Below are positions 36,370 to 52,643 of a stretch of DNA of 64,000 bases, piece by piece. Under the pieces are notes generated by a model that worked only from the letters and a program-made list of their open reading frames with translations, was not told the DNA's origin and searched no databases. Every line of letters begins with the position of its first letter. The stretch's first letter is position 1. The DNA lies in assembly GCA_016869145.1 (NCBI GenBank), contig VGEU01000001.1, forward strand, positions 49,234 through 113,233, read 5' to 3'. The position numbers and the translations under genes were made by a program. The stretch is from Alphaproteobacteria bacterium. Its GTDB lineage: Bacteria > Pseudomonadota > Alphaproteobacteria > MPNO01 > VGEU01.

Positions 36370-36535
36370 CTCCCGGCTTGAAAAATTTGTTTGTATACAT
36401 ACAATAGTTCCGCCCGGCTCGCCGGCTGTCAAGCGTTCGCGCCGGCAAACAAGGCAGGTTAGCTGAGCCGCCTTCGATTGGCTTTGGCAACCCTGCGCGG
36501 TATATAGCATTCCGGCCGCGGAGAACGGTCCGTTC
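36370..36535. promoter_or_regulatory. Divergent promoter region between the Mo-hydroxylase operon and korAB, with a local AT-rich patch and palindromes (TGTATACA; GAACGGTCCGTTC)
   Basis: Sequence cttgaaaaatttgtttgtatacatacaatagttcc (about 36378-36412) and gagaacggtccgttctaa (about 36521-36538), read directly. It is unusually AT-rich for this genome. Confidence 0.4.
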
Positions 36536-36621: not shown

Positions 36622-38490
36622 ATGGCCACCAAGCTCGCGTCAGAACCCTCGGAGCGCCCGGCGCGACGGACGGTCGAGTCCGTCGTCATCCGATTCGCCG
36701 GCGATTCGGGTGACGGCATGCAGATCACCGGGACCCAGTTCACCCAATCGACCGCCCTGATGGGCAACGACCTCGCGACCTTCCCCGACTTCCCGGCCGA
36801 GATCCGGGCGCCGGTCGGCACGACCTATGGCGTGTCCGCGTTCCAGATCAACTTCGCGTCCTACGACATCATGACGCCGGGCGATGCGCCCGACGTCCTG
36901 GTCGCGATGAACCCCGCCGCGCTCAAGGTCCACCTCAAGGACGTGCGCAAGGGCGGCACGCTGATCCTGAATACGGGCGCCTTCAACGACCGCAATTTCC
37001 AGAAGGCCGGCTACAAGGCGAACCCGCTCGAGGATGGCTCGCTCGGCGGCTTCCGCGTGCTCCCGATCGATGTCTCCAAGCTGACGCTGAATGCGGTCGA
37101 GAAGACCGGGCTGTCGCAGAAGGATGCGCTCCGCTGCAAGAACTTCTGGGCGCTCGGCCTGATGTGCTGGATGTATGGACGCGAGCTGCAGCCGACGGTC
37201 GAGTGGATCAACAAGCGGTTCGAGAAACGGCCCGAGCTCGCCGCCGCCAACCTCGCCGCGCTCAAGGCCGGCCACGCCTATGGCGAGACGGCGGAGCTCT
37301 CCGGCTTCGAATCCGTCGAGGTGCCGAAGGCGCGCTCGTCGCCCGGCATCTACCGCGCGGTGACGGGCACCGAGGCGGTCGCGTGGGGTCTCGTCTGCGG
37401 CGCGCACAAGGCGGGCCTCAAGCTCTTCTTCGGCTCCTACCCGATCACGCCCGCCTCCTCCCTCCTCCACACGCTCGCCAATCTCAAGCAATACGGCGTC
37501 ACGACCTTCCAGGCCGAGGACGAGATCGCGGCCGTCTGCTCGTCGATCGGCGCATCCTATGCCGGCCAGATCGGTGTCACCTCGTCGTCGGGCCCGGGCG
37601 TCGCGCTCAAGACCGAAGCGATCGGCCTCGCCTTCGCGACCGAATTGCCGCTGATCATCGTCAACAGCCAGCGCGGCGGACCGTCGACCGGGCTGCCGAC
37701 CAAGACCGAGCAGTCCGACCTCTACCAGGCCGTGTTCGGCCGGAACGCCGATACGCCCGTTCCCGTCATCGCCTCGTCGACGCCCGGCGACTGCTTCTAT
37801 GTCGGCGTCGAGGCGGTGCGGCTCGCGACCAAGTACATGACGCCGGTGATCCTCCTCACCGACGGCTATCTCGCCAACGCGGCCGAGCCGTGGCTGATCC
37901 CCAATGTCGACGACATCGAACCGTTCCCCGTCAGCTTCGACATCGATCCCGAGGGGTTCCATCCGTTCCGGCGCGACGAGACGACGCTCGGGCGCAACTG
38001 GGCGACGCCCGGCATGCCGGGGCTGATGCACCGCATCGGCGGCATCGAGAAGGACTACAACTCGGGCCACATCTCCTACGAGTCGAACAACCACCACCAC
38101 ATGACCAAGGTCCGCGCGGCCAAGGTCAACGGCATCGCCAACGACATCCCGCTGCAGAAAGTCGCGAGCGGCACCGAGCGCGGCAAGCTCGCGGTCGTCG
38201 GCTGGGGCTCGACCTTCGGGGCGATCAACCAGGCCGTGGCGCGGAGCCGCGCGCGCGGGCTCGACGTCTCGCACATCCAGATCCGCCACATCTGGCCGCT
38301 GCCGCGCAATCTCGGCGCGCTCCTCGAGGGCTACGACAAGATCATCGTTCCCGAGATGAACAACGGCCAGCTCGTTACGCTCTTGCGGGCGCAGTATCTG
38401 GTGCCGGCCGAGGGCATCAACCAGATTTCCGGACTGCCATTCAAGGTCGCCGATCTCGAGGCCGAGATCAGCGCTCGCCTGGAGAAGTGA
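36622..38490 (+). CDS. korA: 2-oxoglutarate:ferredoxin (2-oxoacid:acceptor) oxidoreductase alpha subunit
   Basis: 622 aa, with GDSGDGMQITGTQF, the TPP-domain motif GSYPITPASS and the pyruvate/2-oxoacid ferredoxin oxidoreductase domain order. Confidence 0.9.
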   Translation: MATKLASEPSERPARRTVESVVIRFAGDSGDGMQITGTQFTQSTALMGNDLATFPDFPAEIRAPVGTTYGVSAFQINFASYDIMTPGDAPDVLVAMNPAALKVHLKDVRKGGTLILNTGAFNDRNFQKAGYKANPLEDGSLGGFRVLPIDVSKLTLNAVEKTGLSQKDALRCKNFWALGLMCWMYGRELQPTVEWINKRFEKRPELAAANLAALKAGHAYGETAELSGFESVEVPKARSSPGIYRAVTGTEAVAWGLVCGAHKAGLKLFFGSYPITPASSLLHTLANLKQYGVTTFQAEDEIAAVCSSIGASYAGQIGVTSSSGPGVALKTEAIGLAFATELPLIIVNSQRGGPSTGLPTKTEQSDLYQAVFGRNADTPVPVIASSTPGDCFYVGVEAVRLATKYMTPVILLTDGYLANAAEPWLIPNVDDIEPFPVSFDIDPEGFHPFRRDETTLGRNWATPGMPGLMHRIGGIEKDYNSGHISYESNNHHHMTKVRAAKVNGIANDIPLQKVASGTERGKLAVVGWGSTFGAINQAVARSRARGLDVSHIQIRHIWPLPRNLGALLEGYDKIIVPEMNNGQLVTLLRAQYLVPAEGINQISGLPFKVADLEAEISARLEK

Positions 38491-38491
38491 G

Positions 38492-39520
38492 ATGAACGTT
38501 CAGACCCCCGTCGCGAAGCTCACGCCCAACGACTACGCCTCCGATCAGGACGTCCGCTGGTGCCCCGGCTGCGGCGACTACGCGATCCTGAAATCCGTAC
38601 ACAAGGCGCTCGCCGACCTGCAGGCCCCGCTCGACACGACGGTGTTCATCTCGGGCATTGGCTGCGCCGCGCGCTTCCCCTATTACATGGCGACCTACGG
38701 CTTCCACACGATCCATGGCCGCGCGCCGGCGATCGCGACCGGCACCAAGCTCGCCAATCCCGATCTCGATGTCTGGGTCGTCATGGGTGACGGCGATGCG
38801 CTCTCGATCGGCGGCAATCACACGCTGCACGCGATCCGGCGCAACGTCGATCTCAACCTCCTGATGTTCAACAACGCGATCTACGGGCTGACCAAGGGCC
38901 AGTACTCGCCGACTTCGAAGGTCGGCACGCGCTCGCCCTCGACGCCTCAGGGCTCGGTCGACCAGCCGGTCAACGCGATCCTGTTCGCGCTCGGCGCCGG
39001 TGCGCGCTTCGTCGCCCGTTCGGTCGACACCAACCAGAAGCACTTGCCGGAGATGCTGAAGCGCGCGCACGCGCACAAGGGCGCCTCGTTCGTCGAGATC
39101 CTGCAGAACTGCATCGTCTACAACGACGGGGCCTTCTCCGACGTGACCGAGCGCGACGTCGCGCCCGACCGTCAGGTCGTGGTCGAGCACGGCAAGAAGC
39201 TCGTGTTCGGCAAGGACGGGAAGAAGGGTGTGCGCATGAAGCCGGGCGCGCTCGAGCTCGAGGTCGTGACGATCGGCGAGAACGGCGTAACCGAGGCCGA
39301 CATCCTGGTCCACGACGAGAAGAACCGCGCCATGGCGCTCCTCCTCGCAGGCATGGACGGCGGGGCGCTCCCGGTCGCGATGGGGGTCATCTACTGCAAT
39401 CCGGTCGAGAGCTATGACGTCGCGGTCCACAAGCAGATGCGCGAGGTGATCGAGAAGACACCGGCGATCGAATTCAACAAACTCCTCCGCCGCGGCAATA
39501 CCTGGACGGTGAACACCTGA
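38492..39520 (+). CDS. korB: 2-oxoglutarate:ferredoxin oxidoreductase beta subunit (TPP-binding)
   Basis: 342 aa, with WCPGCGDYAIL and the GDGD...N TPP-binding signature (VMGDGDALSIGGNH). Its start overlaps the korA stop. Confidence 0.9.
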   Translation: MNVQTPVAKLTPNDYASDQDVRWCPGCGDYAILKSVHKALADLQAPLDTTVFISGIGCAARFPYYMATYGFHTIHGRAPAIATGTKLANPDLDVWVVMGDGDALSIGGNHTLHAIRRNVDLNLLMFNNAIYGLTKGQYSPTSKVGTRSPSTPQGSVDQPVNAILFALGAGARFVARSVDTNQKHLPEMLKRAHAHKGASFVEILQNCIVYNDGAFSDVTERDVAPDRQVVVEHGKKLVFGKDGKKGVRMKPGALELEVVTIGENGVTEADILVHDEKNRAMALLLAGMDGGALPVAMGVIYCNPVESYDVAVHKQMREVIEKTPAIEFNKLLRRGNTWTVNT

Positions 39521-39548
39521 CCGTCGCGCGGCGGCCGGCGATGCGATC

Positions 39549-39578
39549 GGGCGGGTCCTCGACCCGCCCTTTTCGTTT
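39549..39578 (+). terminator. Rho-independent terminator after korB (GGGCGGGTC-ctc-GACCCGCCC followed by TTTTCGTTT)
   Basis: Perfect 9-bp stem, 3-nt loop and a T-tract, seen directly. Confidence 0.7.
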
Positions 39579-39679
39579 CCGGCCGACCGGAGACCGCTTG
39601 ATGCCCCGAAGGCCTTCGCTATCATGCGCGCGGGCCGATGCCAGACAGCAAGGAACGGCTCGCGTCTGGGGAGGCGAGA

Positions 39680-40999
39680 ATGGGCCGTAGCGTCGCGGTG
39701 GTCGGGTCTGGTCCGGGCGGCATGTACGCCGTCCAGCGCGTGCTCGACGAATGCGGCGACTGCCGCATCGACGTGATCGAGCGGCTGCCTTCTCCCTTCG
39801 GACTGATCCGCGGCGGCGTCGCGCCGGATCACCAGACCACCAAGAACGTGAGCCGCGCGTTCGAGAAGACCCTCCGGGATCCGCGCGTGCGCTATCTCGG
39901 CAATGTCGCGATGGGTCACGACGTGAGCCTCGCCGAGCTCGAGATCATCTACGACGCCGTCATCCTCGCCTATGGCGCGCCGTGGGACCGGAAGCTCGGC
40001 ATCCCCGGCGAGGACAAGAAGAACGTCTTCGGTTCCAACGCCTTTGTCGGCTGGTACAACTGCCATCCCGATTTCAAGGACCTCGACCCCGATCTCGACG
40101 TCGCAGGCGTTGCGGTCGTCGGCGTCGGCAACGTCGCCGTCGACTGCGCCCGCGTTCTCGCCAAGACGCCAAAGGAGATGGCGACGACCGATCTCGCCAC
40201 CTACGCGGCCGCGCGTATCCACGCGGCGCCGATCAAGGACATCTGGATGTTCGGCCGGCGCGGTCCGGCCGAGGCGGCGTTCACCAATGTCGAGCTCCGC
40301 GAGCTCGGCAAGCTCGAGGACTGCGCCACGCTCGTCGATCAGGCGCATCTTCCGGCCGCGATCGATTCGGTCGGCATGGACGACAAGGATTTTCGCGTCC
40401 GCTCGAAGAACCTCGAGACCATGCGCGGCTTCACCGGCGCCGACGCCGGCAGCAAGAAGAAGCGCATGCACATCGCCTTCTTCGCCTCACCCGTCGCCGT
40501 TCTCGGCGGCGAGCGCGTCGAGGGTATCCGGATGGAGAAGACCCGGATCGAGAAGGGACGCGCGATCGGGACCGGCGAGACCTTCGATGTGCCGTGCGGC
40601 CTCGTGATCACCTGCATCGGCTCGCGCGCGGAGGCGATCGAATCGGTTCCGTTCGACGAAAAGGCCGGCATCGTCCGCCACGAGCAGGGGCGCGTCCGGC
40701 CCGGTCTCTACGCCGTTGGCTGGGTGAAGCGCGGCGCCACCGGGACGATCGGCACGAACCGGCTCGATTCCTACGACGTCGTCGATCTGATGCTGAAGGA
40801 GATGGCCGCGCCCGACAAGCCGGGCGCGGCCGCGCTCGACCGGCTTCTGGCCGCGCGCAAGGTGCGCGTCGTCGGGCTCGCGGACTGGCAGAAGATCCAG
40901 AAGCTCGAAGAAGCGAACGCGCCCAAGGGCGCACCGCGGCGGAAATTCATCACGCCGGCGGAGATGCTGGCCGCGCTCGACAAGGCATCGGCGGCCTGA
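39680..40999 (+). CDS. FprA-type NADPH:ferredoxin (adrenodoxin) reductase
   Basis: Start at MGRSVAVVGSGPGGMY (dinucleotide-binding GxGxxG), with a second GVGNVAVD motif. The 440-aa length is typical of adrenodoxin-reductase-like FprA. Confidence 0.8.
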   Translation: MGRSVAVVGSGPGGMYAVQRVLDECGDCRIDVIERLPSPFGLIRGGVAPDHQTTKNVSRAFEKTLRDPRVRYLGNVAMGHDVSLAELEIIYDAVILAYGAPWDRKLGIPGEDKKNVFGSNAFVGWYNCHPDFKDLDPDLDVAGVAVVGVGNVAVDCARVLAKTPKEMATTDLATYAAARIHAAPIKDIWMFGRRGPAEAAFTNVELRELGKLEDCATLVDQAHLPAAIDSVGMDDKDFRVRSKNLETMRGFTGADAGSKKKRMHIAFFASPVAVLGGERVEGIRMEKTRIEKGRAIGTGETFDVPCGLVITCIGSRAEAIESVPFDEKAGIVRHEQGRVRPGLYAVGWVKRGATGTIGTNRLDSYDVVDLMLKEMAAPDKPGAAALDRLLAARKVRVVGLADWQKIQKLEEANAPKGAPRRKFITPAEMLAALDKASAA

Positions 41000-41063: not shown

Positions 41064-42491
41064 TCAGATCGAGAATCCGCCGAGCTTGGTCTCGAGATAT
41101 TCCGCGATGCCGTCGTGGCCGCCCTCGCGGCCGAGCCCGCTCTCCTTCGCGCCGCCGAACGGCGCCGCCGCAGCAGTCGGGTTGATGTCGTTGATTCCGA
41201 CGATCCCGAAACGAAGCCCCTCGAACATCCGGAACGCGCGGCCGATATCGCGGGTGTAGATATAGGACGCGAGCCCGTAATGGGTGTCGTTCGCCATGGC
41301 GAGCGCATCCTCCTCGGTTTCGAAGGTGATTACCGGGGCGACCGGGCCGAAGGTCTCCTCGCGGTAGATCAGCATGTCCGGACGCACCTCGGCGAGGACG
41401 GTCGGTGCATAGAACGTGCCCTTGTCGAGGCCGTTCGAGATCAGCCGATGGCCGCCGCAGAGGAGCTTCGCGCCCTTGCCGACCGCGTCCTGAACCTGGC
41501 GATCCACCTTTGCGATCGCATCGGCATCGACTAGCGGGCCGATCGCGACGTTCTCCTCCATGCCGTCGCCGGCGCGCATCTTCTCGACCCGCGCGGTCAA
41601 CTCGCGCGTGAACGGCTCGGCGATCGAGCGGTGGACGAAGATCCGGTTCGGGCTGATGCAGGCTTGGCCCGTGTTGAGGAACTTCACGAGCGAGGCGCCG
41701 CGCGCGGCGTGGAGCGGATCGGCGTCGTCGAAGACGAGGAAGGGCGCATGGCCGCCGAGCTCGAGGCTGACGCGCTTCATCTGCGCCGCGGCGCGCGCGG
41801 CGATCATCTTGCCGATCTCGGTCGAGCCGGTGAAGGCGAGCTTGCGGATGCGCGGATCGGTGAGAAAGACATCGCCGACCGGCGCCGGGTCGAGCGCTGT
41901 GACGAGGTTCACGACGCCCTTGGGAATGCCGGCATCTGCGAATACGCGAAACATCTCGACCGCGCAGAGTGGCGTCGCCTCGGCCGGCTTCAGGACGATC
42001 GTGCAGCCGGCGGCGAGCGCCGGCCCGATCTTCCGCGTCAGCATCGAGATGGGATAGTTCCACGGCGTGATCGCGCCGACCGGGCCGACCGGCTGCTTCG
42101 CGACGATGAAACGCTGATCGCTGCGCGGCGCGGGAATGGTCTCGCCATAGACGCGCTTGGCCTCCTCCGCGTACCAGAGGAGGAAATCGGCGCCGTACTG
42201 CACCTCGTTGCGCGCGGCCCGGATCGGCTTGCCCTGCTCGGCGGTCATGGTCTTCGCGAGCTCTTCCTTGCGCTCGACCATCAGGGTCCAGGCCTTGTAG
42301 AGGAATTCCGAGCGCTGATAGGCGGTGAGCCGCGACCAGGTCGCGAAGGCGCGTGTCGCGGCGGCGACCGCATCGAGCGTGTCCTCGCGCCCACCGGCCG
42401 GCACCGTGCCGATGACCGCGCCGTTGGCGGGGTTGGTCACCTCGAACACGCCACCGTTCCGCGCCTTCCGCCACTCGCCGTCGATGTACAT
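41064..42491 (-). CDS. NAD(P)-dependent aldehyde dehydrogenase (succinate-semialdehyde dehydrogenase-like)
   Basis: 475 aa, with ELGGHAP (the catalytic Glu region), FLNTGQACISPNR (the catalytic Cys) and GxxxxG. Confidence 0.9.
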   Translation of the reverse strand: MYIDGEWRKARNGGVFEVTNPANGAVIGTVPAGGREDTLDAVAAATRAFATWSRLTAYQRSEFLYKAWTLMVERKEELAKTMTAEQGKPIRAARNEVQYGADFLLWYAEEAKRVYGETIPAPRSDQRFIVAKQPVGPVGAITPWNYPISMLTRKIGPALAAGCTIVLKPAEATPLCAVEMFRVFADAGIPKGVVNLVTALDPAPVGDVFLTDPRIRKLAFTGSTEIGKMIAARAAAQMKRVSLELGGHAPFLVFDDADPLHAARGASLVKFLNTGQACISPNRIFVHRSIAEPFTRELTARVEKMRAGDGMEENVAIGPLVDADAIAKVDRQVQDAVGKGAKLLCGGHRLISNGLDKGTFYAPTVLAEVRPDMLIYREETFGPVAPVITFETEEDALAMANDTHYGLASYIYTRDIGRAFRMFEGLRFGIVGINDINPTAAAAPFGGAKESGLGREGGHDGIAEYLETKLGGFSI

Positions 42492-42598
42492 CGCCCTCTC
42501 CCCGGTTCGATCCGATCTCCATACACCGGCCGGCGCGGTTTGACACCTGTCGGCGCCGCTGCCTACCGTTGCCCGTATCGCCAGAGGGAGACCGCGCG

Positions 42599-43003
42599 AT
42601 GGAACGCCAGCACATCAATCCGCCCGCGCTCTTCAAGCATCCGAGCTATACCCGCGTGGTCACCGTCCAGGGACCGAGCAAGCTCGTCTTCATCGCCGGC
42701 CAGACACCGTCCGACGAGACCTACCGTCCAATCGGCAAGGGCGATCTCAAGCGTCAGTACGAGCGCGTCATGGAGGCACTCGATCTCCAACTCCGGGCCG
42801 CCGGCGCGGGCTGGGACGACGTCGTCTTCCGCCGCATCTTCGTCCTCGACATGGACGCCTTCATCAAGGTCCAGACCGATCCGTCGACGACCTATCCGTG
42901 GCACCCCGACCGGCCGCCGCCCTCGACGCTGGTCGGCGTGACGAGGCTGTCGCACCCGGACTTCATGATCGAGATCGACCTGATGGCCGTCGTCGCAGCC
43001 TGA
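42599..43003 (+). CDS. RidA/YjgF-family protein (second copy)
   Basis: From MERQHINPPALFKHPSYTRVVTV... The alternative start at 42569 cannot be excluded. Confidence 0.7.
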   Translation: MERQHINPPALFKHPSYTRVVTVQGPSKLVFIAGQTPSDETYRPIGKGDLKRQYERVMEALDLQLRAAGAGWDDVVFRRIFVLDMDAFIKVQTDPSTTYPWHPDRPPPSTLVGVTRLSHPDFMIEIDLMAVVAA

Positions 43004-43006
43004 GCC

Positions 43007-43465
43007 CTATTCCGCGATCCGGGCGAGGAGGCGGACGAGCGTCTTCCGCTCCGCCGGGTCGAGGGGGCCGAGCGTCCGTTCGCTGATCGCCCGCGCGCCC
43101 TCGATCGCCGCCGTCATGAGCGCGTGGCCCGCCTCGGTCAGCGACAGGATGAGCCGCCGCCGGTCGTCGGGGTCGGGCCGGCGCGCGATGAGGCCGCGGG
43201 CGGCGAGACGCTGGATCACGCCCTGCATGGTGGCGGCGTCCATCGCGGTGAGCCGGCCCAGCTGGTTCTGCGAGGTTTCACCGACGTCGCGGAGCTTGAC
43301 CAGCGCCGCGAACTGGAGCGGCGTCAGCTGCGCGGCGCCGATGTTCTCGAGGAAGATCGCCGCGTGGCGCTGATGGGCGCGGCGGAGCAGATGCCCCACC
43401 TGCGCCTCGAGCCGGTATCCGGCCTCGGCCACGGCCTTGCCGGTCGGTCGTCCCGCCCCGTCCAT
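43007..43465 (-). CDS. MarR family transcriptional regulator
   Basis: 152 aa with a winged-helix region LTPLQFAALVKL...SQNQLGRLTAMDAATMQGVIQRLAARGLIAR. Confidence 0.85.
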   Translation of the reverse strand: MDGAGRPTGKAVAEAGYRLEAQVGHLLRRAHQRHAAIFLENIGAAQLTPLQFAALVKLRDVGETSQNQLGRLTAMDAATMQGVIQRLAARGLIARRPDPDDRRRLILSLTEAGHALMTAAIEGARAISERTLGPLDPAERKTLVRLLARIAE

Positions 43466-43523
43466 CGCGCCGCCAATCGTTCGTACACGAACGATGTCGG
43501 AGCCGGACCCGGCCTGTCAAGGA

Positions 43524-44747
43524 TCAGACGATGCTTTTGGACCGGAGCGCCGCGATCTCGGCTGGCGAGAGGCCCGCGAGACCGCGCAGCACCTCCTCGG
43601 TGTGCTGGCCGAGGGTCGGGGATGCGCGCTCATAGGCGATCGGCGTGCCGGAGAGCTTGATCGGGTTGGCCACCCCCGGCACCGAGCCGGCGGTCGGGTG
43701 CGGCAACTCGATCCGCAGCCCGCGCGCGGCGACCTGGGGATCGGCGAAGACCTGGGCGAGATCGTTGATCGGGCCGCACGGCACGCCTGCCTTGTCGAGG
43801 AGATCGATCCAGACCTGGCGCGGCCGCGTCCGCATGAAGTCGGTGATGATGGCGACGAGGGCGTCGCGATTGGCAACGCGCGAGACATTGTCCTTGAAGC
43901 GCGGATCGGCCGGGACCTCGGGACGGCCGGCGATCTCGCAGAAGCGGCGGAACTGGCCCTCGTTACCGATCGCGATGATGAGATAGTGATCCGCGGTCGG
44001 GAACGCCTGGTAGGGCACGATGTTGGGATGGGCGTTTCCCATCCGCACCGGTGCGACGCCGGTGACGAGGTAGTTGAGCGCCTGGTTCGCCATGCACGCG
44101 GTCGTCACGTCGAACAGCGCCATATCGACGTGCTGGCCTTCGCCGGTCTCAGCACGGCTGCGGAGCGCGGCGAGCGCGGCCACGGCCGTGTAGAGCCCGG
44201 TCAGGATGTCTGAGAGCGCGACGCCGATCTTCTGCGGCCCGCCGCCCGGCTTGTCGTCGGCCTCGCCCGTCACGCTCATCATGCCGGCGAGGCCCTGGAT
44301 CATGAAGTCGTAGCCGGCGCGCTCGGCGTTGGGGCCGGTCTGCCCGAAGCCGGTGATCGAGCAGTAGATGAGGCCGCGGTTCAGCTTGCGGAGGTCGTCA
44401 TAGCCGAGGCCGTAGCGGGCGAGACCGCCGACCTTGTAGTTCTCGATCAGGATGTCGGACGTCGCGGCGAGACGACGGATGACGTCCTGGCCTTCGGGTG
44501 TCGCGATGTCGAGCGTGACCGAGCGCTTGCCGCGGTTCGTCGACTGGAAATAGGCCGCCTCGGTCGTCGGCCGTCCGTCCGGCCCCTTGAGGAAAGGCGG
44601 GCCCCACGCGCGGGTGTCGTCGCCGGCGCCGGGGCGCTCGATCTTGATCACGTCGGCGCCGAGATCGGCCAACAGCTGACCGCACCACGGGCCTGCGAGA
44701 ACGCGGCTCAGATCGAGCACGCGAATGCCGACGAGGGGACCGCTCAT
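43524..44747 (-). CDS. CoA-transferase family III (CaiB/BaiF) protein, a candidate glutarate or dicarboxylate CoA-transferase
   Basis: Start at [37 protein letters not shown], a typical family III N-terminus, with the conserved Asp region (GYDFMIQ). Confidence 0.85.
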   Translation of the reverse strand: MSGPLVGIRVLDLSRVLAGPWCGQLLADLGADVIKIERPGAGDDTRAWGPPFLKGPDGRPTTEAAYFQSTNRGKRSVTLDIATPEGQDVIRRLAATSDILIENYKVGGLARYGLGYDDLRKLNRGLIYCSITGFGQTGPNAERAGYDFMIQGLAGMMSVTGEADDKPGGGPQKIGVALSDILTGLYTAVAALAALRSRAETGEGQHVDMALFDVTTACMANQALNYLVTGVAPVRMGNAHPNIVPYQAFPTADHYLIIAIGNEGQFRRFCEIAGRPEVPADPRFKDNVSRVANRDALVAIITDFMRTRPRQVWIDLLDKAGVPCGPINDLAQVFADPQVAARGLRIELPHPTAGSVPGVANPIKLSGTPIAYERASPTLGQHTEEVLRGLAGLSPAEIAALRSKSIV

Positions 44748-45961
44748 CAGCCGGTGAACGCCTGGATGCCGGTCTGTGCGCGGCCGAGGATGAGCGCGTG
44801 GATGTCGTGCGTGCCCTCGTAGGTGTTGATGGTCTCGAGATTCATCATGTGGCGGATGACGTGGTACTCGTCGACGATGCCGTTGCCGCCGTGCATGTCG
44901 CGGGCCAAGCGCGCGATGTCGAGCGCCTTGCCGGTCGAATTGCGCTTGACGAGCGAGATCGCCTCGGGCGCGCATTTGCCCTCGTCCATCAGCCGTCCGA
45001 GACGGAGACACGCGTGCAGCCCGAGCGTGATCTCGGTCTGCATGTCGGCGAGCTTCTTCTGGATGAGCTGGTTGGCCGCGAGCGGGCGACCGAACTGGCT
45101 GCGGTCGAGCGTGTACTGGCGCGCGGCGTGCCAGCAGAACTCGGCCGCGCCGAGAGCGCCCCAGCAGATGCCGTAGCGGGCGTTGTTGAGGCAGCCGAAC
45201 GGTCCGCCGAGCCCGCGCGCTTCGGGCAGCATGTTCTCCGCAGGCACGAACACGTCATCGAGCGCGATCGTGCCGGTCTGCGAGGCGCGGAGCGAGAACT
45301 TGCCGTCGATCTTGACGGTCGAGAGCCCTTTCATGCCGCGCTCGAGGATGAAACCGCGGATCGTGCCCTCGTCGTCCTTGGCCCAGATCACGAACACGTC
45401 GGCGAAGGGCGCATTCGAGATCCAGGTCTTCGATCCCTTGAGCACAAAGCCGCCGTCGACCTTGCGGGCACGGGTCTTCATGCCACCGGGATCGGAGCCA
45501 TGGTCCGGCTCGGTGAGGCCGAAGCATCCGGCGAGCTCGCCGGTCGCGAGACGCGGTAGGTATTTCACCCGATGCGCCTCGGTGCCATAGGTGTAGATCG
45601 GCCACATCACGAGCGAGGACTGGACCGAGAGCGTCGAGCGGTAGGCACCGTCCACCCGCTCGATCTCGCGCGCGATCAGCCCGTAGGCGACATAGCTCGC
45701 GCCGGCACAGCCATAGCCGTCGAGCGTCGAGCCGAGGAAGCCCATCTCGCCCATCTGGTTGAGGAGCGCGCGATCGAAGGTCTCGTGGCGGTTGGCCTGG
45801 ACGATGCCGGGCATCAGCTTCTCGGCCGCGAACTCGCGCGCGGCATCGCGGATCAGCTTCTCGTCCTCGCCGAGGAGATCGTCGAAGAGGAGCGGATCCT
45901 CCCACTGGAAATTCGCCCACTTCTTGACCTTGGGGCCGGCCGTCGCGGCGTCTAGTGCCAT
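44747..45961 (-). CDS. gcdH: Glutaryl-CoA dehydrogenase (acyl-CoA dehydrogenase family)
   Basis: Start at MALDAATAG; 404 aa. It has the typical GcdH N-terminus ([17 protein letters not shown]) and the C-terminal [14 protein letters not shown] motif. Confidence 0.85.
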
Positions 45962-46001: not shown

Positions 46002-47060
46002 TCAGCCGAACTTCTTCTTGGCCGCATCGAGGAAGCTGAGGTCGACCATGGTCTCGTAGGTCTGCGTCTTGACCTTGGTCGCCTCGCTGAACCAGACCTT
46101 GCCGCCATTCTCGAACTGAGCCCGCGTGATCACGCCGTTGTAGTCGTAGATCGGCTTGAGATACGCGATCTCGCGCATCGCCACCTCGGGCTTAAAGTTG
46201 CCCATGAACCGGCCCTCGACGGTCTTGTAGAGCTGCTCGGGCGTGCTGTTCTTGATCAACTGGAGGGCGCGATAGACGGCGTTGACGATGCCTTGGGTCA
46301 GCGCGGGCTTGGCCTTGATCTGCTCCTCGAGCGCGAACAGGCACTGGCCCGCGAAGGCGGAGCCGAAGAACTTGTTCCACAGCGCATCGTCGGTGGCGTT
46401 GAACGCGGCCTCGCCCAGCTTCTCGTCGGCGATGGCGAAGAAGATCAGGGTGTTCGCCATGCAGGCGTCGACCTTGCCGCTCTTGAAGGCCCCGATCATC
46501 GGCGCGCCGTCGCCGGTCGAGACGAAGTTGACGTTGTCGAGGAGACCGGCCTTCAGAAACATGTGGGAGCCATAGAGCCAGCTCTGCGCGCCGACGCGCG
46601 TGACGGCGATCTGCGGCTTGGTGCCGTCGGGCTTCTTCAGATTGCCGAGCGCCTCGACGGTGCGGATACCCTTCTCCCACAACTCGTTCCGAACCATCAG
46701 GGTCATCGTGGCGCGGGTGTCGAGGCCCATCATGATCTTGGCCGACTTGCCGGCGCCGGTGAGATAGAGCGGATGGATCACGTCGCCCTGGGCATACGGC
46801 ATCTGCCCGGCCGCGACCATCTGGCGGGTGTTGGTGCCGGCGGCGCCGGTGACGACGCGGCCGTTGATGCCCTCGTCCTTGAAGTAGCCGGCGGCGGAAG
46901 CGACCATGAACTGGAGGCTGTTCGAGGTCTCGACCGGGATGCCGAGCAGCATCTCCTCCGCCTGCGCCCGGGCCGCACCGGCCCAGGTGAACGAGTAAAG
47001 CTTGGTCGCGGCCACGGCCCCGGTGCCGGCCAACATCGTCCGGCGATTGATCCCACTCAT
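46002..47060 (-). CDS. ABC-transporter-type periplasmic substrate-binding protein (NMT1/SsuA/TauA-like) with a Tat signal
   Basis: Start at [32 protein letters not shown] (twin-arginine motif). No ABC permease or ATPase genes are adjacent. Confidence 0.75.
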
Positions 47061-47279
47061 CGTCGCGCTCTCCCTTGGTCGATGCGAGCCGCGTCGGTAT
47101 GGCGGCGGCCCTGGCAGCCAGTCCAACTCATGTTCTCGAAGGCCGGACTATAACGTCTCATCGGCCTCGGGCAACGCCAAACGGCCGGCGATCGGCCGCG
47201 CCGAGCCGATCAAGTTGACTCGCTCAAGCGGCCCCTGCGATGGTGGCGACGCCGCCAACCGACAAGCTTGGAGTTCGCC

Positions 47280-48686
47280 ATGCCGCATACGCTCCGGTCG
47301 TTCCTCGACAACATCCATAACCGGATTCTCAACATCCACGATCCGGTGCGCCCGGAAACGCAGATCGGCATCCTGTGCTCGGAGAGCCGGAGCCCGCTGA
47401 TGTTCCACAATCTCGTCGGCTATCCCGGCTTCAAGCTGACCGACATCTTGATCAAGGACCGGCGCGGCCAGGCCGCCGCTCTTGGCCTCGACAACATCAA
47501 GGAGGTCTGCCCGTTCCTCGCCAAGCAGATGTCGGCCGGCCCCGGACGCTCCACCATCGTCAAAGACGGTCCGGTGAAGGAGGTCAAGCTGATCGGCAAG
47601 AACGCCGATATCCGTAAGCTTCCCATCCCGCAGCACAGCCACGGCGATGCCGGGCGCTATCTCGGCTCCGGCATCACGATCACCAAGGACCCCGAGACCG
47701 GCATCCGGAACGAGTCCATTCTCCGGATGCAGCTCACCGACGATCCGCACAAATGCCCGTTCTGGATGGCGGCACGACACAACTATAGCCACTATCTGAA
47801 ATACGTCGCGCGCGGGGAATCGATGCCGATGGCGTTCGCGATCGGCCTCCACCCGGTCTACGAGATCATTGCCAACTGGTCGGGTCGGCACGAGGACTTC
47901 GACGAGCTCGAATATGCGGCCGGCGTCCTCGGCGAGACGGTCGAGCTCGTGAAATGCGAGACCATCGACCTCGAGGTTCCGGCGCATGCCGAGATCGTCA
48001 TCGAAGGCCTCGTCCATCCGACCGAGCGCATGCCCGAGGGTCCGTTCGGCGAGTTCACCACCCTCGGCACCGGCGCCGAGGGACCGGCCCCGGTGTTCAC
48101 CGTGACCGCGATCACCCACCGCAAAGACCCGATCTTCCGCCACATGCAGGCGACGTGGTTCACCGACCACCAGCCGTTGATCACGCTTCCCATGGAGGCC
48201 GCCTATTACAACCGGCTGCGCGACACCCACGGCAACACCAAGGTCCTCGACGTGTTCGTGCCGCCCTGGGCGTCGCAGTTCATGATGGTGGTCCAGGTCG
48301 AGGCGAAATGGGACGGCCAGGTCACCGATATGCTCATGTCGGCGCTGTCGGGCCCCAACCTCCACGTCAAGGTCGCGATCGCCGTCGACGAGGACGTCGA
48401 TCTCTACAACGCCGAGGACGTCCTGTGGGCGATCGCCGCCCGCTGCAACCCGCAGACCGATGTCTGGGTGCATCCGAACTCGCGGCTCCACCCGCTCGAC
48501 GTCTCGATCCCGCAGATCGGCGACGAGTACACGGTGATGCGCGTCGGCGGCAAGCTCGCGATCGATGCGACCCGTCCGCCGACCTGGCGCAAGAAGGAGC
48601 GTGACAGTCTCGGCCGCGTCGATCCGATGGGCAAGCACGACCCGGCGATACAGAAGATCCTCGAGATGGTGCGCCTGCCGCGCTGA
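47280..48686 (+). CDS. UbiD-family (prFMN-dependent) decarboxylase, type B paralog
   Basis: Start at MPHTLRSF (RBS TTGGAG); 468 aa, with GRYLGSG, EGPFGEFTT and the UbiD fold. It is about 35% identical to the 55853-57295 gene. Confidence 0.85.
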   Translation: MPHTLRSFLDNIHNRILNIHDPVRPETQIGILCSESRSPLMFHNLVGYPGFKLTDILIKDRRGQAAALGLDNIKEVCPFLAKQMSAGPGRSTIVKDGPVKEVKLIGKNADIRKLPIPQHSHGDAGRYLGSGITITKDPETGIRNESILRMQLTDDPHKCPFWMAARHNYSHYLKYVARGESMPMAFAIGLHPVYEIIANWSGRHEDFDELEYAAGVLGETVELVKCETIDLEVPAHAEIVIEGLVHPTERMPEGPFGEFTTLGTGAEGPAPVFTVTAITHRKDPIFRHMQATWFTDHQPLITLPMEAAYYNRLRDTHGNTKVLDVFVPPWASQFMMVVQVEAKWDGQVTDMLMSALSGPNLHVKVAIAVDEDVDLYNAEDVLWAIAARCNPQTDVWVHPNSRLHPLDVSIPQIGDEYTVMRVGGKLAIDATRPPTWRKKERDSLGRVDPMGKHDPAIQKILEMVRLPR

Positions 48687-48739
48687 CGGCCTTCCGCCAG
48701 CACAGGCACCGGCACCGGCACCAGCAGCATCGTGCCCGC

Positions 48740-49957
48740 ATGACCTCGGCCGTCGCCCACGCCGACCATCGGGTCGAGAACAAGACGATCGGGTTCATCT
48801 CGATCGGGCATGCGATCAGCCATTTCTACATGCTGGTGCTGCCGCCGCTGTTCCCGGTCCTCAAGACCGAGTTCGACGTGAGCTGGGCGTGGCTCGGCGG
48901 CATCCTCACGCTCTCGGGCGTCGCGATGGGCGTGGCCCAGGTTCCGCTCGGGTTCCTGGTCGACAAGATCGGCGCGCGGCCGGTGCTGTTCTGGGGCTTC
49001 GGCATCATGGCCGGCGCGACGATGCTGTCGGGCTTCGCCGACACTTTCGTGCTCCTCCTCGTCCTCACCGTGATCGCCGGGCTCGGCAACTCGGTGTTCC
49101 ATCCGGCGGACTACGCGATCCTGTCGGCACGGATCCGTGGGCCCCGTCTCGGCCGCGCGTTCTCGGTTCATCTGTTCGCGTCCTATATCGGCTGGATGAT
49201 CGCGCCGGCGGTCATGATCGCCCTCAACGAGATCGTCGGCTGGCGCAACGCGCTGATCGTGACCGGCGCCGCCGGTCTCGTCTTCCTCGCCGTCATGATC
49301 TGGCAGCGCGACTGCGTCGACGACCGCAAGAACGTCGTCGCGCGCGGCAAGGACGCACCGGCGCCGATGACGCCGTTCGAGATGGTGCGCAACCCGCCCA
49401 TCCTTCTGTTCTTCCTGTTCTTCCTTCTGCTCGCACTCGGCGGCACCGGGCTCCACAGCTTCATCGTCACCTCGCTGGTCGAGCTCTACGGCGCCGATCT
49501 CCGCGTCGCCAACATCGCGCTCGCCGGTTTCTTCGCGGCCGGCGGCATCGGCATCCTCATCGGCGGCTACATCGCCGACAAGACCGACCGCCACGAGGAC
49601 GCGACCGCGATCGCCTATGTGATCGGCGCGGTCCTGATCGCCGCCGTCGCGTTTCCCGTGGTCGGCATCTGGGGTGCGGTCGCCCTCCTCTTCCTCGGCG
49701 GCCTCTTCAACGCCTGCGTCAGCCCCTCGCGCGACATCATGGTGCGGAACATCTCGCCACCGGGCCAGGTCGGGGCCGTGTTCGGGCTCGTCACCACCGG
49801 CTTCTCGGTCGGTGGCGCGATCGCCCCGGCGCTGTTCGGGTGGTTCAACGACATCGGCCATCCGCAATGGGTGTTCTGGTTCTCGGCGTTGACCTCGCTG
49901 CTCTCCATCCTCGCCGTCTATGCCGCCCAGATCGCGCACCGGCGCTCGCTCCGCTGA
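48740..49957 (+). CDS. MFS transporter
   Basis: 405 aa with 12 predicted TM helices and MFS motifs (GFLVDKIGARP). Confidence 0.85.
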   Translation: MTSAVAHADHRVENKTIGFISIGHAISHFYMLVLPPLFPVLKTEFDVSWAWLGGILTLSGVAMGVAQVPLGFLVDKIGARPVLFWGFGIMAGATMLSGFADTFVLLLVLTVIAGLGNSVFHPADYAILSARIRGPRLGRAFSVHLFASYIGWMIAPAVMIALNEIVGWRNALIVTGAAGLVFLAVMIWQRDCVDDRKNVVARGKDAPAPMTPFEMVRNPPILLFFLFFLLLALGGTGLHSFIVTSLVELYGADLRVANIALAGFFAAGGIGILIGGYIADKTDRHEDATAIAYVIGAVLIAAVAFPVVGIWGAVALLFLGGLFNACVSPSRDIMVRNISPPGQVGAVFGLVTTGFSVGGAIAPALFGWFNDIGHPQWVFWFSALTSLLSILAVYAAQIAHRRSLR

Positions 49958-50010
49958 TCGCGCCACCACTTGGCCGCTGACAAGCCCGGCCGAATCCCGC
50001 ACACTTCCGC

Positions 50011-50052
50011 GTCGTCCTGTGCCCGTCGTCCTGTGCCCGTCGTCCTGTGCCC
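50011..50052. repeat. Perfect tandem repeat 3 x 14 bp (GTCGTCCTGTGCCC) immediately upstream of the RBS of the TctC-like gene
   Basis: gtcgtcctgtgccc gtcgtcctgtgccc gtcgtcctgtgccc gtcatcc, read directly. The RBS GAGGAG is at about 50063. Confidence 0.85.
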
Positions 50053-50075
50053 GTCATCCGGTCGAGGAGTCCGTC

Positions 50076-51113: not shown

Positions 51114-51159
51114 GCCTGTCCGACACCGGCCGCGACAACCGCAGAAAGGAGCCCGGACC

Positions 51160-52053: not shown

Positions 52054-52058
52054 GCCCC

Positions 52059-52625
52059 ATGGCGTCATCGCGTCTGCCGCGCCGGCGCGCGCTCTGCCTG
52101 TTCTGCGGCGCCTCGGAGAAGTTCCCGCCGAGCTTCCGTGCCGCCGCCGAGGCGCTCGGCGCTGGCTCTGTCCGGAACGGCTGGCGGCTCGTCTATGGCG
52201 GCAGCCGGTCCGGGCTGATGGGCGCCGCGGCGCGCGCGGCGATGGCGGCGGGCGGCGAGGTGATCGGCGTCCGCCCGCGCGGCCTCATCGCGGCGGAAAT
52301 GCCGGCCGCCGAGATCACCGAGCAGATCCACGTCGACACATTCCATGAGCGCAAGGCCGTGATGGCGGCGCTCGCCGACCACTTCGTCGCGCTGCCGGGC
52401 GGGCTCGGCACGCTCGATGAGGTGAGCGAGATGATGAACCTCGCCGTCACCGGCATCCAGGCCCAGCGAACCTGGTTCCTCGATATCGATTCCTATTGGC
52501 GCCCGCTGATGGCGCTGTTCGCCCACTTCGATTCCTACGGCGCGTCGCGGCCGGGCTTCGAGGCCACCTATGCCGCCGTCGAGAGCGTCGATGCGCTGTT
52601 CGCCGCGCTCGACCCGAAACGCTGA
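52059..52625 (+). CDS. LOG-family nucleotide 5'-monophosphate phosphoribohydrolase (TIGR00730 Rossmann-fold protein)
   Basis: Start at MASSRLPRRRALCLFCGAS, 5 nt after the nadC stop. VYGGSRSGLMGAAA...PGGLGTLDE matches LOG-family motifs (GGGxxGLMG; PGGxGTxEE). Confidence 0.8.
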   Translation: MASSRLPRRRALCLFCGASEKFPPSFRAAAEALGAGSVRNGWRLVYGGSRSGLMGAAARAAMAAGGEVIGVRPRGLIAAEMPAAEITEQIHVDTFHERKAVMAALADHFVALPGGLGTLDEVSEMMNLAVTGIQAQRTWFLDIDSYWRPLMALFAHFDSYGASRPGFEATYAAVESVDALFAALDPKR

Positions 52626-52643
52626 CCGAGGGAACGAGACGCC

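Follow-up and report, generated by a model that had tools for sequence, protein, structure and literature searches.

The region at 41064-45961 of the 64,000-nucleotide stretch of DNA analysed here (the window) probably comprises the lower, glutarate branch and the pathway regulator of a reductive nicotinate island of the Azorhizobium/Eubacterium type, in which gcdH and caiB would serve nicotinate degradation. By homology, a molybdenum hydroxylase would form 6-hydroxynicotinate, Hnr would reduce it to 1,4,5,6-tetrahydro-6-oxonicotinate (THON), and enamidase would open the THON ring to yield 2-formylglutarate and ammonia. We propose that loss of CO2 turns this beta-aldehydo acid into glutarate semialdehyde, which an SSADH-type aldehyde dehydrogenase, with the gene at 41064-42491 as a candidate, would oxidise to glutarate. 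Strong homology and synteny suggest that CaiB/GcoT would then move CoA from succinyl-CoA to glutarate, and that GcdH would convert glutaryl-CoA to crotonyl-CoA by oxidative decarboxylation.

Degradation of nicotinate via THON and glutarate has been described for Azorhizobium caulinodans (Kitts 1992, as cited in PMC3511419 and PMC9304392), a route that fits a CoA-transferase together with GcdH. The nicotinate exit route proposed in the earlier note is supported by the enzymes and their synteny but cannot be called novel; as the island follows the known reductive route, the idea was largely right and not new. The new points are the residue match of MarR and the placement of its operators.

Gene layout

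All five genes are real and have the coordinates first assigned to them, according to the ORF listing, composition, family searches and the gene calls that JGI made independently for an identical metagenome contig. The source DNA, from an uncultured proteobacterium that is probably an alphaproteobacterium, has a GC content of ~67%. The aldehyde dehydrogenase gene (41064-42491, minus strand, 475 aa; PF00171, 566 bits) is followed along the window by a Rid-family gene (42599-43003, plus, 134 aa; PF01042, 74 bits), marR (43007-43465, minus, 152 aa; PF01047 and PF12802), the family III CoA-transferase gene caiB/gcoT (43524-44747, minus, 407 aa; PF02515, 453 bits) and gcdH (44747-45961, minus, 404 aa; three ACAD domains). 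The overlap of the last two was read correctly: the gcdH TGA (44749-44747) and the caiB ATG (44747-44745) have one base in common. The five genes are not co-directional, however, and do not form the single module that had been assumed, as the Rid gene is on the plus strand and the others on the minus strand. The Rid gene converges on marR, with 3 bp between its end and the marR stop, and diverges from the aldehyde dehydrogenase gene, their starts being 107 bp apart. On the minus strand the order is SBP, gcdH, caiB, marR, so that marR, thought to sit immediately upstream of caiB-gcdH, actually follows caiB on that strand, 58 bp further downstream.

The upstream neighbour of gcdH encodes an NMT1-type periplasmic solute-binding protein (SBP; 46002-47060, minus, 352 aa; PF13379 and PF09084) with a signal-like N-terminus in which twin arginines are present. 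An AAGGAG lies in the 40 bp that separate it from gcdH, and the SBP-gcdH order recurs in locus L087, where the SBP is 83% identical. SBP, gcdH and caiB are probably transcribed together, with SBP as the first gene; a promoter-like hexamer pair upstream of SBP (47174-47147) is weak evidence, one such pair being found against 0.5 expected.

GcdH and CaiB

By its alignments, the gcdH product is a classical decarboxylating glutaryl-CoA dehydrogenase. It scores 605 bits against human GCDH (1sir) and 597 bits against Burkholderia GcdH, and it has Arg108 and Glu382 at the aligned positions of human Arg94 and Glu370. The caiB product is predicted to be a succinyl-CoA:glutarate CoA-transferase of the GcoT/SUGCT type. 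Among NCBIfam families it matches NF052585 (succinate--glutarate CoA-transferase) best, with 556 bits, short of the curated equivalog cut-off of 750, and the next family scores 312. It scores 355 bits against human SUGCT (9br7), and its Asp180 aligns with Asp212, the catalytic residue of SUGCT (PMC10871334). Transferases that adjoin gcdH share 61-68% identity with CaiB, and gcdH is followed by a caiB/gcoT orthologue in ~75 of 80 GTDB loci. Homology, conserved residues and this synteny thus point to a bona fide pair for the activation and oxidation of glutarate, as the earlier note had it; since SUGCT-type enzymes are promiscuous, the acid taken by CaiB could be another C5/C6 dicarboxylate.

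The pair resembles the characterised gcdR-gcdH-gcoT system of Pseudomonas putida, in which gcdH likewise precedes gcoT and the two are co-transcribed (PMC6667623); Pseudomonas-type proteins are ~68% identical to GcdH and ~64% identical to CaiB of the window. The window differs in the one-base overlap of the two genes, in the SBP gene upstream and in having, instead of the divergent LysR activator GcdR, a MarR gene downstream whose operators lie elsewhere. Human GCDH and SUGCT share both catalytic functions and the key residues (Arg94, Glu370, Asp212) with the window pair; unlike it, they are mitochondrial, their genes are unlinked and SUGCT is physiologically promiscuous.

Linkage to the nicotinate genes

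The hydroxylase-hnr operon (29184-36359, minus) has six genes, headed by that of the hydroxylase FAD subunit (35517-36359). The FeS+Mo subunit gene (32764-35520), hnr (31280-32767; 72-83% identity to proteins named 6-hydroxynicotinate reductase), a UPF0280/ApbE-like gene (30391-31260) and two AA_synth genes (29765-30394 and 29184-29771; PF06684 matches twice) complete it, all on the minus strand. The hydroxylase scores 286 and 223 bits against the L and M subunits of Eubacterium barkeri nicotinate dehydrogenase (3hrd), and the gene order is common to 10 related loci. Further away, on the plus strand, a second Rid-family gene (25328-25720; PF01042, 115 bits) precedes the enamidase gene (~25774-26967), whose product scores 377 bits (E 2e-111) against the E. 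barkeri enzyme (2vun), the runner-up structure reaching only 35 bits. The nicotinate genes were said to lie 5-10 kb away, which is roughly right for the hydroxylase-hnr operon, at 4.7-12 kb from the aldehyde dehydrogenase gene, and wrong for enamidase, at 14 kb. No gene for a 2-formylglutarate decarboxylase was identified in the window.

The physical link of caiB-gcdH to nicotinate genes holds. In the window and six further independent loci (L003, L083/084, L085, L090, L172 and P0029) gcdH-caiB abuts fprA-korBA and the ring-reduction genes hnr-UPF0280-AA_synth. With protein identities of only 60-80%, these loci have preserved the arrangement over considerable divergence. The linkage is frequent and not obligatory, since full hnr/enamidase clusters without gcdH-caiB within 10 kb are found in L173, L174, Sulfitobacter and Neorhizobium. 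In several related loci Amidohydro_2, Rieske, SnoaL and UbiD genes lie just upstream of gcdH with no enamidase within reach, and glutaryl-CoA may there be formed from another, though related, substrate.

It could be argued that SBP-gcdH-caiB is a general glutarate/lysine/tryptophan operon, as in Pseudomonas, and that its nicotinate neighbours are coincidental. The gcdH-gcoT pair stands alone, apart from nicotinate genes, in those ~75 of 80 GTDB loci, nicotinate clusters without a nearby gcdH exist, and SBP-gcdH of the window has no MarR operator. We nevertheless consider coincidence unlikely, given the recurrence in seven such divergent loci; moreover, lysine/5-aminovalerate genes and a LysR-type GcdR were not found nearby, and UbiD and gcdH of the TARA loci L088/089 have an operator-like site of 24.5 bits immediately between them.

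The reductive route proposed here shares its three upper enzymes (molybdenum hydroxylase, Hnr and enamidase) with A. caulinodans (Kitts et al. 1992) and E. barkeri (Alhapel et al. 2006). For the Azorhizobium, Bradyrhizobium and Rhodopseudomonas clusters, PMC3511419 reports no more than the enzymes of the first three steps together with an ABC transporter and two proteins of unknown function, whereas in the window the glutarate genes, a ferredoxin-reducing trio and a regulator are contiguous with the nicotinate genes.

The korAB-fprA trio

Between marR and hnr lie korA (36622-38490, plus; TIGR03710, 627 bits; 6n2n, 245 bits), korB (38492-39520, plus; TIGR02177, 258 bits) and a gene for an NADPH:ferredoxin reductase of the FprA/adrenodoxin-reductase type (39680-40999, plus; FprA 1lqt, 311 bits), a trio kept in that place in L003, L083-085, L090, L172, L174 and the P0029 locus. 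Hnr (EC 1.3.7.1) requires ferredoxin. We propose that korAB-fprA reduces ferredoxin as a low-potential source of electrons for Hnr and that KorAB would give one succinyl-CoA per ring reduced, the CoA donor for CaiB. In Thauera aromatica the KorAB that serves benzoyl-CoA reductase is likewise a two-subunit 2-oxoacid:ferredoxin oxidoreductase beside a ring reducer (PMC9973337, citing Doerner and Boll 2002, for KorAB as the ferredoxin reducer). Unlike in Thauera, Hnr is the reductase here and acts on a pyridone ring, an FprA-type reductase stands beside KorAB, and the succinyl-CoA would be used directly in the same pathway.

A different role for the trio is rather improbable, a little more so than coincidental linkage: KorAB would be a 2-oxoadipate:ferredoxin oxidoreductase that feeds glutaryl-CoA to GcdH, or glutaryl-CoA would come from substrates of the UbiD, Amidohydro_2 and Rieske enzymes encoded upstream of gcdH in the relatives, and CaiB would only salvage free glutarate. 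No other neighbour of gcdH-caiB-marR is as constant as the trio, and as the models matched by KorA and KorB are generic ones for 2-oxoacid:acceptor oxidoreductases, these matches leave the substrate undefined. The ferredoxin requirement of Hnr and the Thauera precedent argue for ring reduction instead, as do five loci (L003, L083, L085, L090 and L174) in which korA diverges from hnr and equivalent MarR operator sites in the divergent region are common to both, and L174, in which marR-fprA-korBA-hnr occurs without gcdH-caiB.

The aldehyde dehydrogenase and Rid genes

The aldehyde dehydrogenase is, by its family matches, of the succinate/glutarate-semialdehyde-dehydrogenase type and monocistronic. 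It scores 582 bits against TIGR01780 (SSADH), short of the cut-off of 646, and 504 bits against Escherichia coli GabD (3jz4), and carries the ELGG Glu244 and Cys278. The proposed oxidation of glutarate semialdehyde to glutarate would make it a candidate in this lineage only. The family is widespread and its neighbourhood is not fixed, with module genes near none of 80 close orthologues; the only linkage to marR is that in L087 (87% identity). Both this gene and the Rid gene are absent from six of the seven related gcdH-caiB-hnr loci and, contrary to the earlier view, are not constant members of the module; the pair is a lineage-specific insertion. The adjacent "RidA" is of the Rid/YjgF family, as its PF01042 match indicates, but is not an archetypal RidA: it scores 39 bits against TIGR00004 (cut-off 106) and shows PPST in place of the archetypal PARS motif. 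It is 79% identical to its L087 counterpart.

The chemistry first suggested, in which the aldehyde dehydrogenase oxidises 2-formylglutarate to propane-1,1,3-tricarboxylate and decarboxylation to glutarate follows, is quite improbable. The gene adjoins the module in the window and in L087, and as 2-formylglutarate is glutarate semialdehyde with an additional alpha-carboxylate, it might fit an SSADH-type active site. A substituted malonate, however, decarboxylates far less readily than a beta-aldehydo acid, and in the Azorhizobium pathway decarboxylation reportedly precedes oxidation to glutarate, so that on chemical and historical grounds decarboxylation followed by oxidation is the likelier order. 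Furthermore, the aldehyde dehydrogenase gene has no candidate decarboxylase gene linked to it, and its absence from the syntenic loci and lack of linkage among the 80 orthologues speak against the tricarboxylate as well.

The MarR regulator and its predicted operators

The marR product is predicted to be a BpsR-like repressor that responds to 6-hydroxynicotinate. It scores 113 bits against the BpsR structures 6pcp/6pco, other MarR structures reaching at most 44 except 2nnn at 136. Its Tyr17, His25, Arg28 and His34 align, four out of four, with Tyr15, His23, Arg26 and His32, which contact 6HNA in BpsR (PMC6837509), and are kept in 121-124 of 124 homologues. In Bordetella, BpsR is a 6-hydroxynicotinate-responsive MarR repressor of nic genes, and MarR of the window likewise lies by nicotinate catabolic genes; BpsR controls the oxidative (NicC/NicX) pathway, whereas MarR belongs to a reductive (Hnr/enamidase) one.

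Exactly two copies of a 20-bp palindromic MarR operator are predicted in the window, one in front of marR and one in front of the hydroxylase-hnr operon; the prediction is comparative and uses a PWM that was built from relatives only. Operator 1 (43476-43495, ATCGTTCGT-AC-ACGAACGAT) lies in the caiB-marR gap between a TTGACA box (43520-43515, minus) and the marR ATG. The palindrome occurs nowhere else in the window (0.05 chance matches expected) and scores 30.3 bits against a shuffle maximum of 16.6, and the TTGACA-spacer-palindrome layout also precedes marR in seven related loci. Operator 2 (36386-36405, TTTGTTTGTATACATACAAT; 29.9 bits) is 27 bp upstream of the hydroxylase FAD-subunit gene, overlaps a promoter-like TTGACA-17-AACTAT element on the minus strand and is, besides operator 1, the sole site above 8 bits in the 64 kb scanned. 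In control loci totalling 1.85 Mb the PWM found nothing of 17 bits or more, and no sites were found in the loci that have no marR (L172, L173).

The comparison suggests that marR has its own promoter, that MarR would repress marR and the hydroxylase-hnr operon through the palindrome and that 6-hydroxynicotinate would release it. MarR would act without detectable control of gcdH-caiB or the aldehyde dehydrogenase gene: the PWM found no operator before SBP-gcdH (best -6.8 bits) or the aldehyde dehydrogenase gene in the window, nor was a shared signal of any kind found there that ties either to the nicotinate genes. That MarR senses glutarate or glutaryl-CoA and regulates caiB-gcdH as an analogue of GcdR, as the earlier note implied, is the least probable of these readings, for although marR comes right after caiB in six loci, its predicted operators precede hnr/hydroxylase genes instead, the 6HNA-contact residues are kept, and marR stays with hnr where gcdH-caiB is absent (L174, Sulfitobacter, Neorhizobium). 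In the relatives and in cultured Sulfitobacter and Neorhizobium, where they stand before nic genes on plasmids, operator sites precede hnr, korA, nicA, fpr, hyuA and the enamidase gene.

Gene order and identity of the glutarate genes

An earlier note read five genes of this region, encoding an aldehyde dehydrogenase (ALDH), RidA, a MarR regulator, a CaiB-type CoA-transferase and a glutaryl-CoA dehydrogenase, as one module by which 2-formylglutarate would leave as a dicarboxylate. All five genes lie where that note placed them. The window has a GC content of ~67% and a third-position GC of ~0.85-0.92 sets its real genes apart; the ORF listing gives the ALDH gene at 41064-42491 (minus strand, 475 aa), a Rid/YjgF-family gene at 42599-43003 (plus, 134 aa), marR at 43007-43465 (minus, 152 aa), the family III CoA-transferase gene caiB at 43524-44747 (minus, 407 aa), the acyl-CoA dehydrogenase gene gcdH at 44747-45961 (minus, 404 aa) and a gene for an NMT1-type solute-binding protein (SBP) at 46002-47060 (minus, 352 aa), and the same six calls (352, 404, 407, 152, 134 and 475 aa) were made on an identical 10.8-kb JGI metagenome contig; the window thus derives from an uncultured organism. 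The overlap described for the last two genes is also real, amounting to one base that belongs both to the stop codon of gcdH and to the start codon of caiB. The arrangement, however, is not the one proposed. The order on the minus strand is SBP, gcdH, caiB, marR, which puts marR 58 bp downstream of caiB rather than immediately upstream, and the five genes do not form a co-directional unit: the Rid gene is on the plus strand, convergent with marR across a gap of 3 bp and divergent from the ALDH gene across 107 bp, and the ALDH gene is convergent with the gene at 39680-40999. A consensus scan of 40.9-47.4 kb, uninformative at 67% GC, gave one weak promoter-like site, 5' of SBP, and no terminators between genes. 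No LysR activator of the GcdR type was found adjacent to gcdH-caiB.

The GcdH protein carries all three domains of the acyl-CoA dehydrogenase fold (PF02771, PF02770 and PF00441) and scores 605 bits against human GCDH and ~597 against Burkholderia GcdH, compared with at most 257 against any acyl-CoA dehydrogenase that is not a GCDH. Its Glu382 and Arg108 align with human Glu370 and Arg94, the catalytic base and the carboxylate-binding residue, respectively, and the equivalents of human Ser98 and Tyr369 are also kept. CaiB is a full-length CoA_transf_3 protein (PF02515, 453 bits) whose top NCBIfam match, the succinate--glutarate CoA-transferase family NF052585, stands at 556 bits, 244 bits ahead of the runner-up (312) and below the curated equivalog cut-off of 750. 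It scores 355 bits against human SUGCT, and its Asp180 aligns with the catalytic Asp212 of that enzyme (PMC10871334). In ~75 of 80 GTDB loci, mostly from Pseudomonas, a transferase to which CaiB is 61-68% identical lies directly 3' of gcdH, and gcdH-gcoT of P. putida has been characterised as its glutaryl-CoA route for glutarate catabolism (PMC6667623). Strong homology together with synteny thus predicts that GcdH is a decarboxylating glutaryl-CoA dehydrogenase (EC 1.3.8.6) and that CaiB is a succinyl-CoA:glutarate CoA-transferase of the GcoT/SUGCT type, and the proposal of a glutarate exit through these two enzymes holds.

Linkage to a reductive nicotinate island

At ~25774-26967 (plus), an ORF matches the E. 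barkeri enamidase (2vun) at 377 bits and has essentially no other PDB match. The 495-aa product of hnr (31280-32767) is a member of a very conserved family: its relatives, which are 72-83% identical, are named 6-hydroxynicotinate reductase by NCBI and JGI, and among the homologues with a source name the nearest comes from a Rhodospirillales MAG. Upstream of hnr, a fused FeS/Mo protein matches both Mo subunits, L and M, of E. barkeri nicotinate dehydrogenase (3hrd; 286 and 223 bits). The window therefore encodes together a nicotinate-dehydrogenase-type hydroxylase, Hnr and the enamidase, and by homology these surroundings are a reductive nicotinate island of the E. barkeri/Azorhizobium kind.

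For homologues of MarR and Hnr, the gene neighbourhoods were scored with the window proteins. The pair gcdH-caiB adjoins fprA-korB-korA and hnr in the window and in the related loci L003, L083/084, L085, L090, L172 and P0029. With proteins only 60-80% identical to those of the window, these loci represent independent lineages. The sources of the related loci are lake and TARA ocean metagenomes, so that the layout is present in fresh water as well as in the sea. L172, on a 3.8-Mb contig, repeats the layout of the window and also has its hydroxylase, enamidase and isochorismatase-like genes. There are also hnr clusters with no gcdH-caiB within reach, namely L173, L174 and those on plasmids of Sulfitobacter pontiacus and Neorhizobium sp. 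NCHU2750. The claimed link between the glutarate exit and the nicotinate genes is strengthened both by this synteny and by the regulator described below.

Several smaller features accompany these clusters. Three genes come after hnr (29184-31260, minus), one UPF0280/ApbE-like and two of the PF06684 'amino acid synthesis' family. They are likewise 3' of hnr in every relative with the region visible (L003, L083, L085, L090 and L172-L176), the cultured Sulfitobacter and Neorhizobium among them. The encoded proteins may act as subunits of Hnr or as flavinylation factors, and might correspond to the 'conserved proteins of unknown function' of PMC3511419. An isochorismatase-like hydrolase gene (24529-25299, plus) precedes a second Rid-family gene (25328-25720, plus; PF01042, 115 bits) that is immediately 5' of the enamidase gene. 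This isochorismatase-Rid arrangement resembles RutB/RutC, an analogy which suggests that the two products might aid amide or enamine hydrolysis after ring opening; the isochorismatase-enamidase pair is seen again in L172 and L173. Between the enamidase gene and the hnr operon are two adjacent genes for MBL-fold homologues of AidB-like lactonases (27065-28791, minus), with sub-threshold scores of 149 and 123 bits.

In L083, L085, L090 and the P0029 locus, a same-strand Amidohydro_2 gene (ACMSD/LigW-type), a gene for a small Rieske protein and a short ORF precede gcdH in several cases, and a divergent SnoaL-like gene and two UbiD genes are also found 5' of gcdH. In these relatives glutaryl-CoA may arise from a related but different substrate. 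In L090 caiB is in fragments (6231-7449) and is possibly a pseudogene.

The aldehyde dehydrogenase and Rid genes are peripheral

The ALDH (PF00171, 566 bits) has the catalytic Glu244, within ELGG, and Cys278. Its best family is TIGR01780 (succinate-semialdehyde dehydrogenase, SSADH) at 582 bits, below the cut-off of 646, and it scores 504 bits against E. coli GabD; by sequence it is an enzyme of the SSADH type. Linkage was assessed in 80 metagenome loci with ALDHs 67-85% identical to that of the window, and in none of them did an orthologue of Rid, MarR, CaiB, GcdH or Hnr lie beside the ALDH gene. The one partial exception, L116, has a distant Rid-family gene (26-33% identity), and the commonest neighbour family is found in at most 9 of the 80 loci. 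With no neighbourhood kept, the ALDH was rejected as a core member of the module. The window and L087, its closest relative (ALDH 87% and GcdH 91% identical), are the only loci in which the ALDH-Rid pair separates marR from fprA, two genes that are directly tail-to-tail in the other related loci. The pair is thus a 2-kb lineage-specific insertion. Both genes, taken earlier for parts of the module, are peripheral to it.

Enzymes of the GabD/DavD type oxidise glutarate semialdehyde, and the ALDH may well do the same. In an Amphritea MAG (L065, 8841-12754) gcdH, caiB and an ALDH gene, whose product is 47% identical, run in one direction, an order that supports a functional tie of SSADH-type ALDHs to glutarate genes in some bacteria.

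The label RidA does not fit the product of 42599-43003. The protein scores 39 bits against TIGR00004, for which the cut-off is 106, and both Rid genes of the window encode PPST at the position of the archetypal PARS motif, which in E. coli RidA contains the essential active-site Arg105. As the cut-off is missed and PPST replaces PARS, the protein is placed in the wider PF01042 family only.

A BpsR-like regulator and its predicted operator

MarR, a winged-helix protein, matches P. aeruginosa 2NNN at 136 bits and Bordetella BpsR (6PCP/6PCO) at 113 bits, and other MarR structures at 44 bits or less. BpsR represses nic genes and is released from DNA by 6-hydroxynicotinate (6HNA), which it contacts through Tyr15, His23, Arg26 and His32 (PMC6837509). 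These residues align with Tyr17, His25, Arg28 and His34 of the window MarR, and the four positions are kept in 121-124 of 124 MarR homologues. We predict that MarR senses 6HNA and not glutarate, which differs from the ligand implied earlier.

The caiB-marR gap contains a TTGACA box and then a perfect 9-2-9 palindrome, ATCGTTCGTACACGAACGAT, which occurs once in the window; the same order of box, spacer and palindrome is repeated 5' of marR in seven related loci. A weight matrix built from the relatives only, leaving the window out, detects exactly two sites of ~30 bits in the 64 kb. One precedes marR (43476-43495) and the other, at 36386-36405, is 27 bp 5' of the leading gene in the hydroxylase-hnr operon (29184-36359, minus) and overlaps a TTGACA-17-AACTAT element. 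Shuffled sequence reaches 16.6 bits at most, and control loci totalling 1.85 Mb hold no site of at least 17 bits. Among the relatives, two sites are predicted in the korA/hnr divergent region, and in TARA loci sites precede gcdH and an Amidohydro_2 gene. In Sulfitobacter and Neorhizobium they precede enamidase/fpr, nicA, fpr, hnr and hyuA, and in the loci that lack marR (L172 and L173) there are none.

No operator was detected in the window before SBP-gcdH, in the Rid/ALDH divergent gap or at 3' junctions, where the best scores are -6.8, -19.8, -13.3 and -8.1 bits. Direct control of gcdH-caiB or of the ALDH gene by MarR in the window, considered as a candidate, was therefore dropped. From the positions of the predicted sites, we infer that marR has its own autoregulated promoter and that MarR controls the hydroxylase-hnr operon, and that in the window it exerts no detectable control over gcdH-caiB or the ALDH gene.

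Proposed pathway and electron supply

In the 1992 scheme for Azorhizobium, hydrolytic ring opening is reportedly followed by decarboxylation and then by oxidation to glutarate, and the last steps are said to be transthioesterification with succinyl-CoA and oxidative decarboxylation of glutaryl-CoA to crotonyl-CoA. CaiB and GcdH fit these last two steps exactly. PMC3511419 and PMC9304392, both citing Kitts 1992, describe aerobic nicotinate degradation in Azorhizobium caulinodans via 6HNA and 1,4,5,6-tetrahydro-6-oxonicotinate (THON), with complete catabolism via glutarate. As that route runs via THON and glutarate, what the earlier note put forward as a logical route is essentially a known pathway. 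The order given in the earlier note, in which oxidation to a tricarboxylate comes before decarboxylation, is unlikely; in the 1992 scheme decarboxylation reportedly comes first.

We propose that the Mo hydroxylase would convert nicotinate to 6HNA, Hnr would reduce 6HNA to THON, and the enamidase would open THON to 2-formylglutarate and NH3, each step being assigned by homology. 2-Formylglutarate would lose CO2, possibly spontaneously, to give glutarate semialdehyde, which the SSADH-type ALDH could oxidise to glutarate. CaiB, with strong homology and synteny behind it, would transfer CoA from succinyl-CoA to glutarate, releasing succinate, and GcdH, on the same grounds, would convert glutaryl-CoA to crotonyl-CoA and CO2.

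Kept between marR and hnr are korA, korB and a gene for an NADPH:ferredoxin reductase of the FprA/adrenodoxin-reductase type (36622-40999, plus). KorAB is a 2-oxoacid:ferredoxin oxidoreductase, with 6n2n as its top structure match. The protein at 39680-40999 had carried a GltD-like label from NCBIfam matches, which was replaced after a PDB search pointed to the FprA type (311 bits). No separate small ferredoxin gene was noticed near 36622-40999. KorAB and the FprA-type reductase would reduce the ferredoxin for Hnr, for which Thauera KorAB is a precedent (PMC9973337). On the three-subunit 2-oxoglutarate:NADP+ oxidoreductase of Azoarcus evansii as a comparator, the literature searched gave nothing usable. 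One 2-oxoglutarate passing through KorAB would yield two low-potential electrons, enough for Hnr to reduce one 6HNA, and the same 2-oxoglutarate would yield one succinyl-CoA, enough for CaiB to activate the one glutarate derived from that ring. We therefore put forward, tentatively and as a doubtful rather than a favoured generalisation, that gcdH-caiB-marR, fprA-korB-korA and hnr-UPF0280-AA_synth2 might form a self-contained, stoichiometrically coupled aerobic module for reductive pyridine-ring degradation, widespread in uncultured aquatic alphaproteobacteria and all under a BpsR-like 6HNA sensor acting via a new 20-bp operator.

Other lower routes can be envisaged. The genes at 21276-24496 encode an acyl-CoA ligase and two SDRs, one of which is BadH-like (347 bits, where the cut-off is 431), and on the Sulfitobacter plasmid genes for a CoA ligase, an acyl-CoA dehydrogenase, a hydratase and a 3-hydroxyacyl-CoA dehydrogenase lie beside the enamidase gene; both sets hint at an alternative, CoA-ligase-based lower pathway. 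Benzoate or cyclohexanecarboxylate (BadH-type) degradation as the source of glutaryl-CoA was rejected, as it would be represented by only the sub-threshold BadH-like SDR and the CoA ligase at 21-24 kb, beyond which no further bad genes were found.

For the nicotinate route via glutarate, the biochemistry of the Azorhizobium-type pathway has been known since 1992, and in the literature searched genes are assigned to the first three steps only. The window and its relatives provide candidate genes for the glutarate steps (a gcoT-type transferase and gcdH), in korAB and the FprA-type reductase a candidate electron supply for the 6-hydroxynicotinate reductase of aerobes, which depends on ferredoxin, and a candidate regulator, the BpsR-like MarR with its predicted operator. 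These assignments are concrete and testable at low cost. The gain is one of incremental annotation and not a new kind of system, and the novelty is modest: for a pathway already known, genes are assigned, a regulator is paired with a predicted operator and a plausible coupling of redox and CoA supply is put forward. The earlier interpretation is supported in part. The glutarate exit and its link to nicotinate remain; the tricarboxylate order is unlikely, ALDH and Rid are peripheral, the role and ligand of MarR differ from those implied, and the pathway itself was already known biochemically.

Other neighbouring genes

Genes of the hydantoinase/oxoprolinase family (HyuA/HyuB) are found at 15955-20310 (minus) in the window, at 1293-4722 in L174 and at 18638-22431 in L176. 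In L174 and Neorhizobium they adjoin hnr clusters that have no enamidase in the stretch viewed, and in Neorhizobium a 20-bit site resembling the MarR operator lies just 5' of hyuA. HyuA/HyuB may be an ATP-dependent, lactam-opening alternative to the enamidase. In the window, two large Hydantoinase_B ORFs adjoin another Mo-hydroxylase subunit (13516-15954) and a GST.

Beyond SBP, four paralogues of the UbiD decarboxylase family are encoded at ~47268-48686 (plus), 53660-55204 (plus), 55853-57313 (minus) and 57376-59112 (minus). Together with them, within 47154-59112, are genes for an MFS transporter, two TctC-like receptors and a homologue of NadC (quinolinate phosphoribosyltransferase), and the region may serve to funnel in pyridine-dicarboxylates or other aromatic acids. 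In the TARA loci L088/089, a gene for a UbiD to which the first one of the window is 74% identical is divergent from gcdH, with an operator-like site separating the two.
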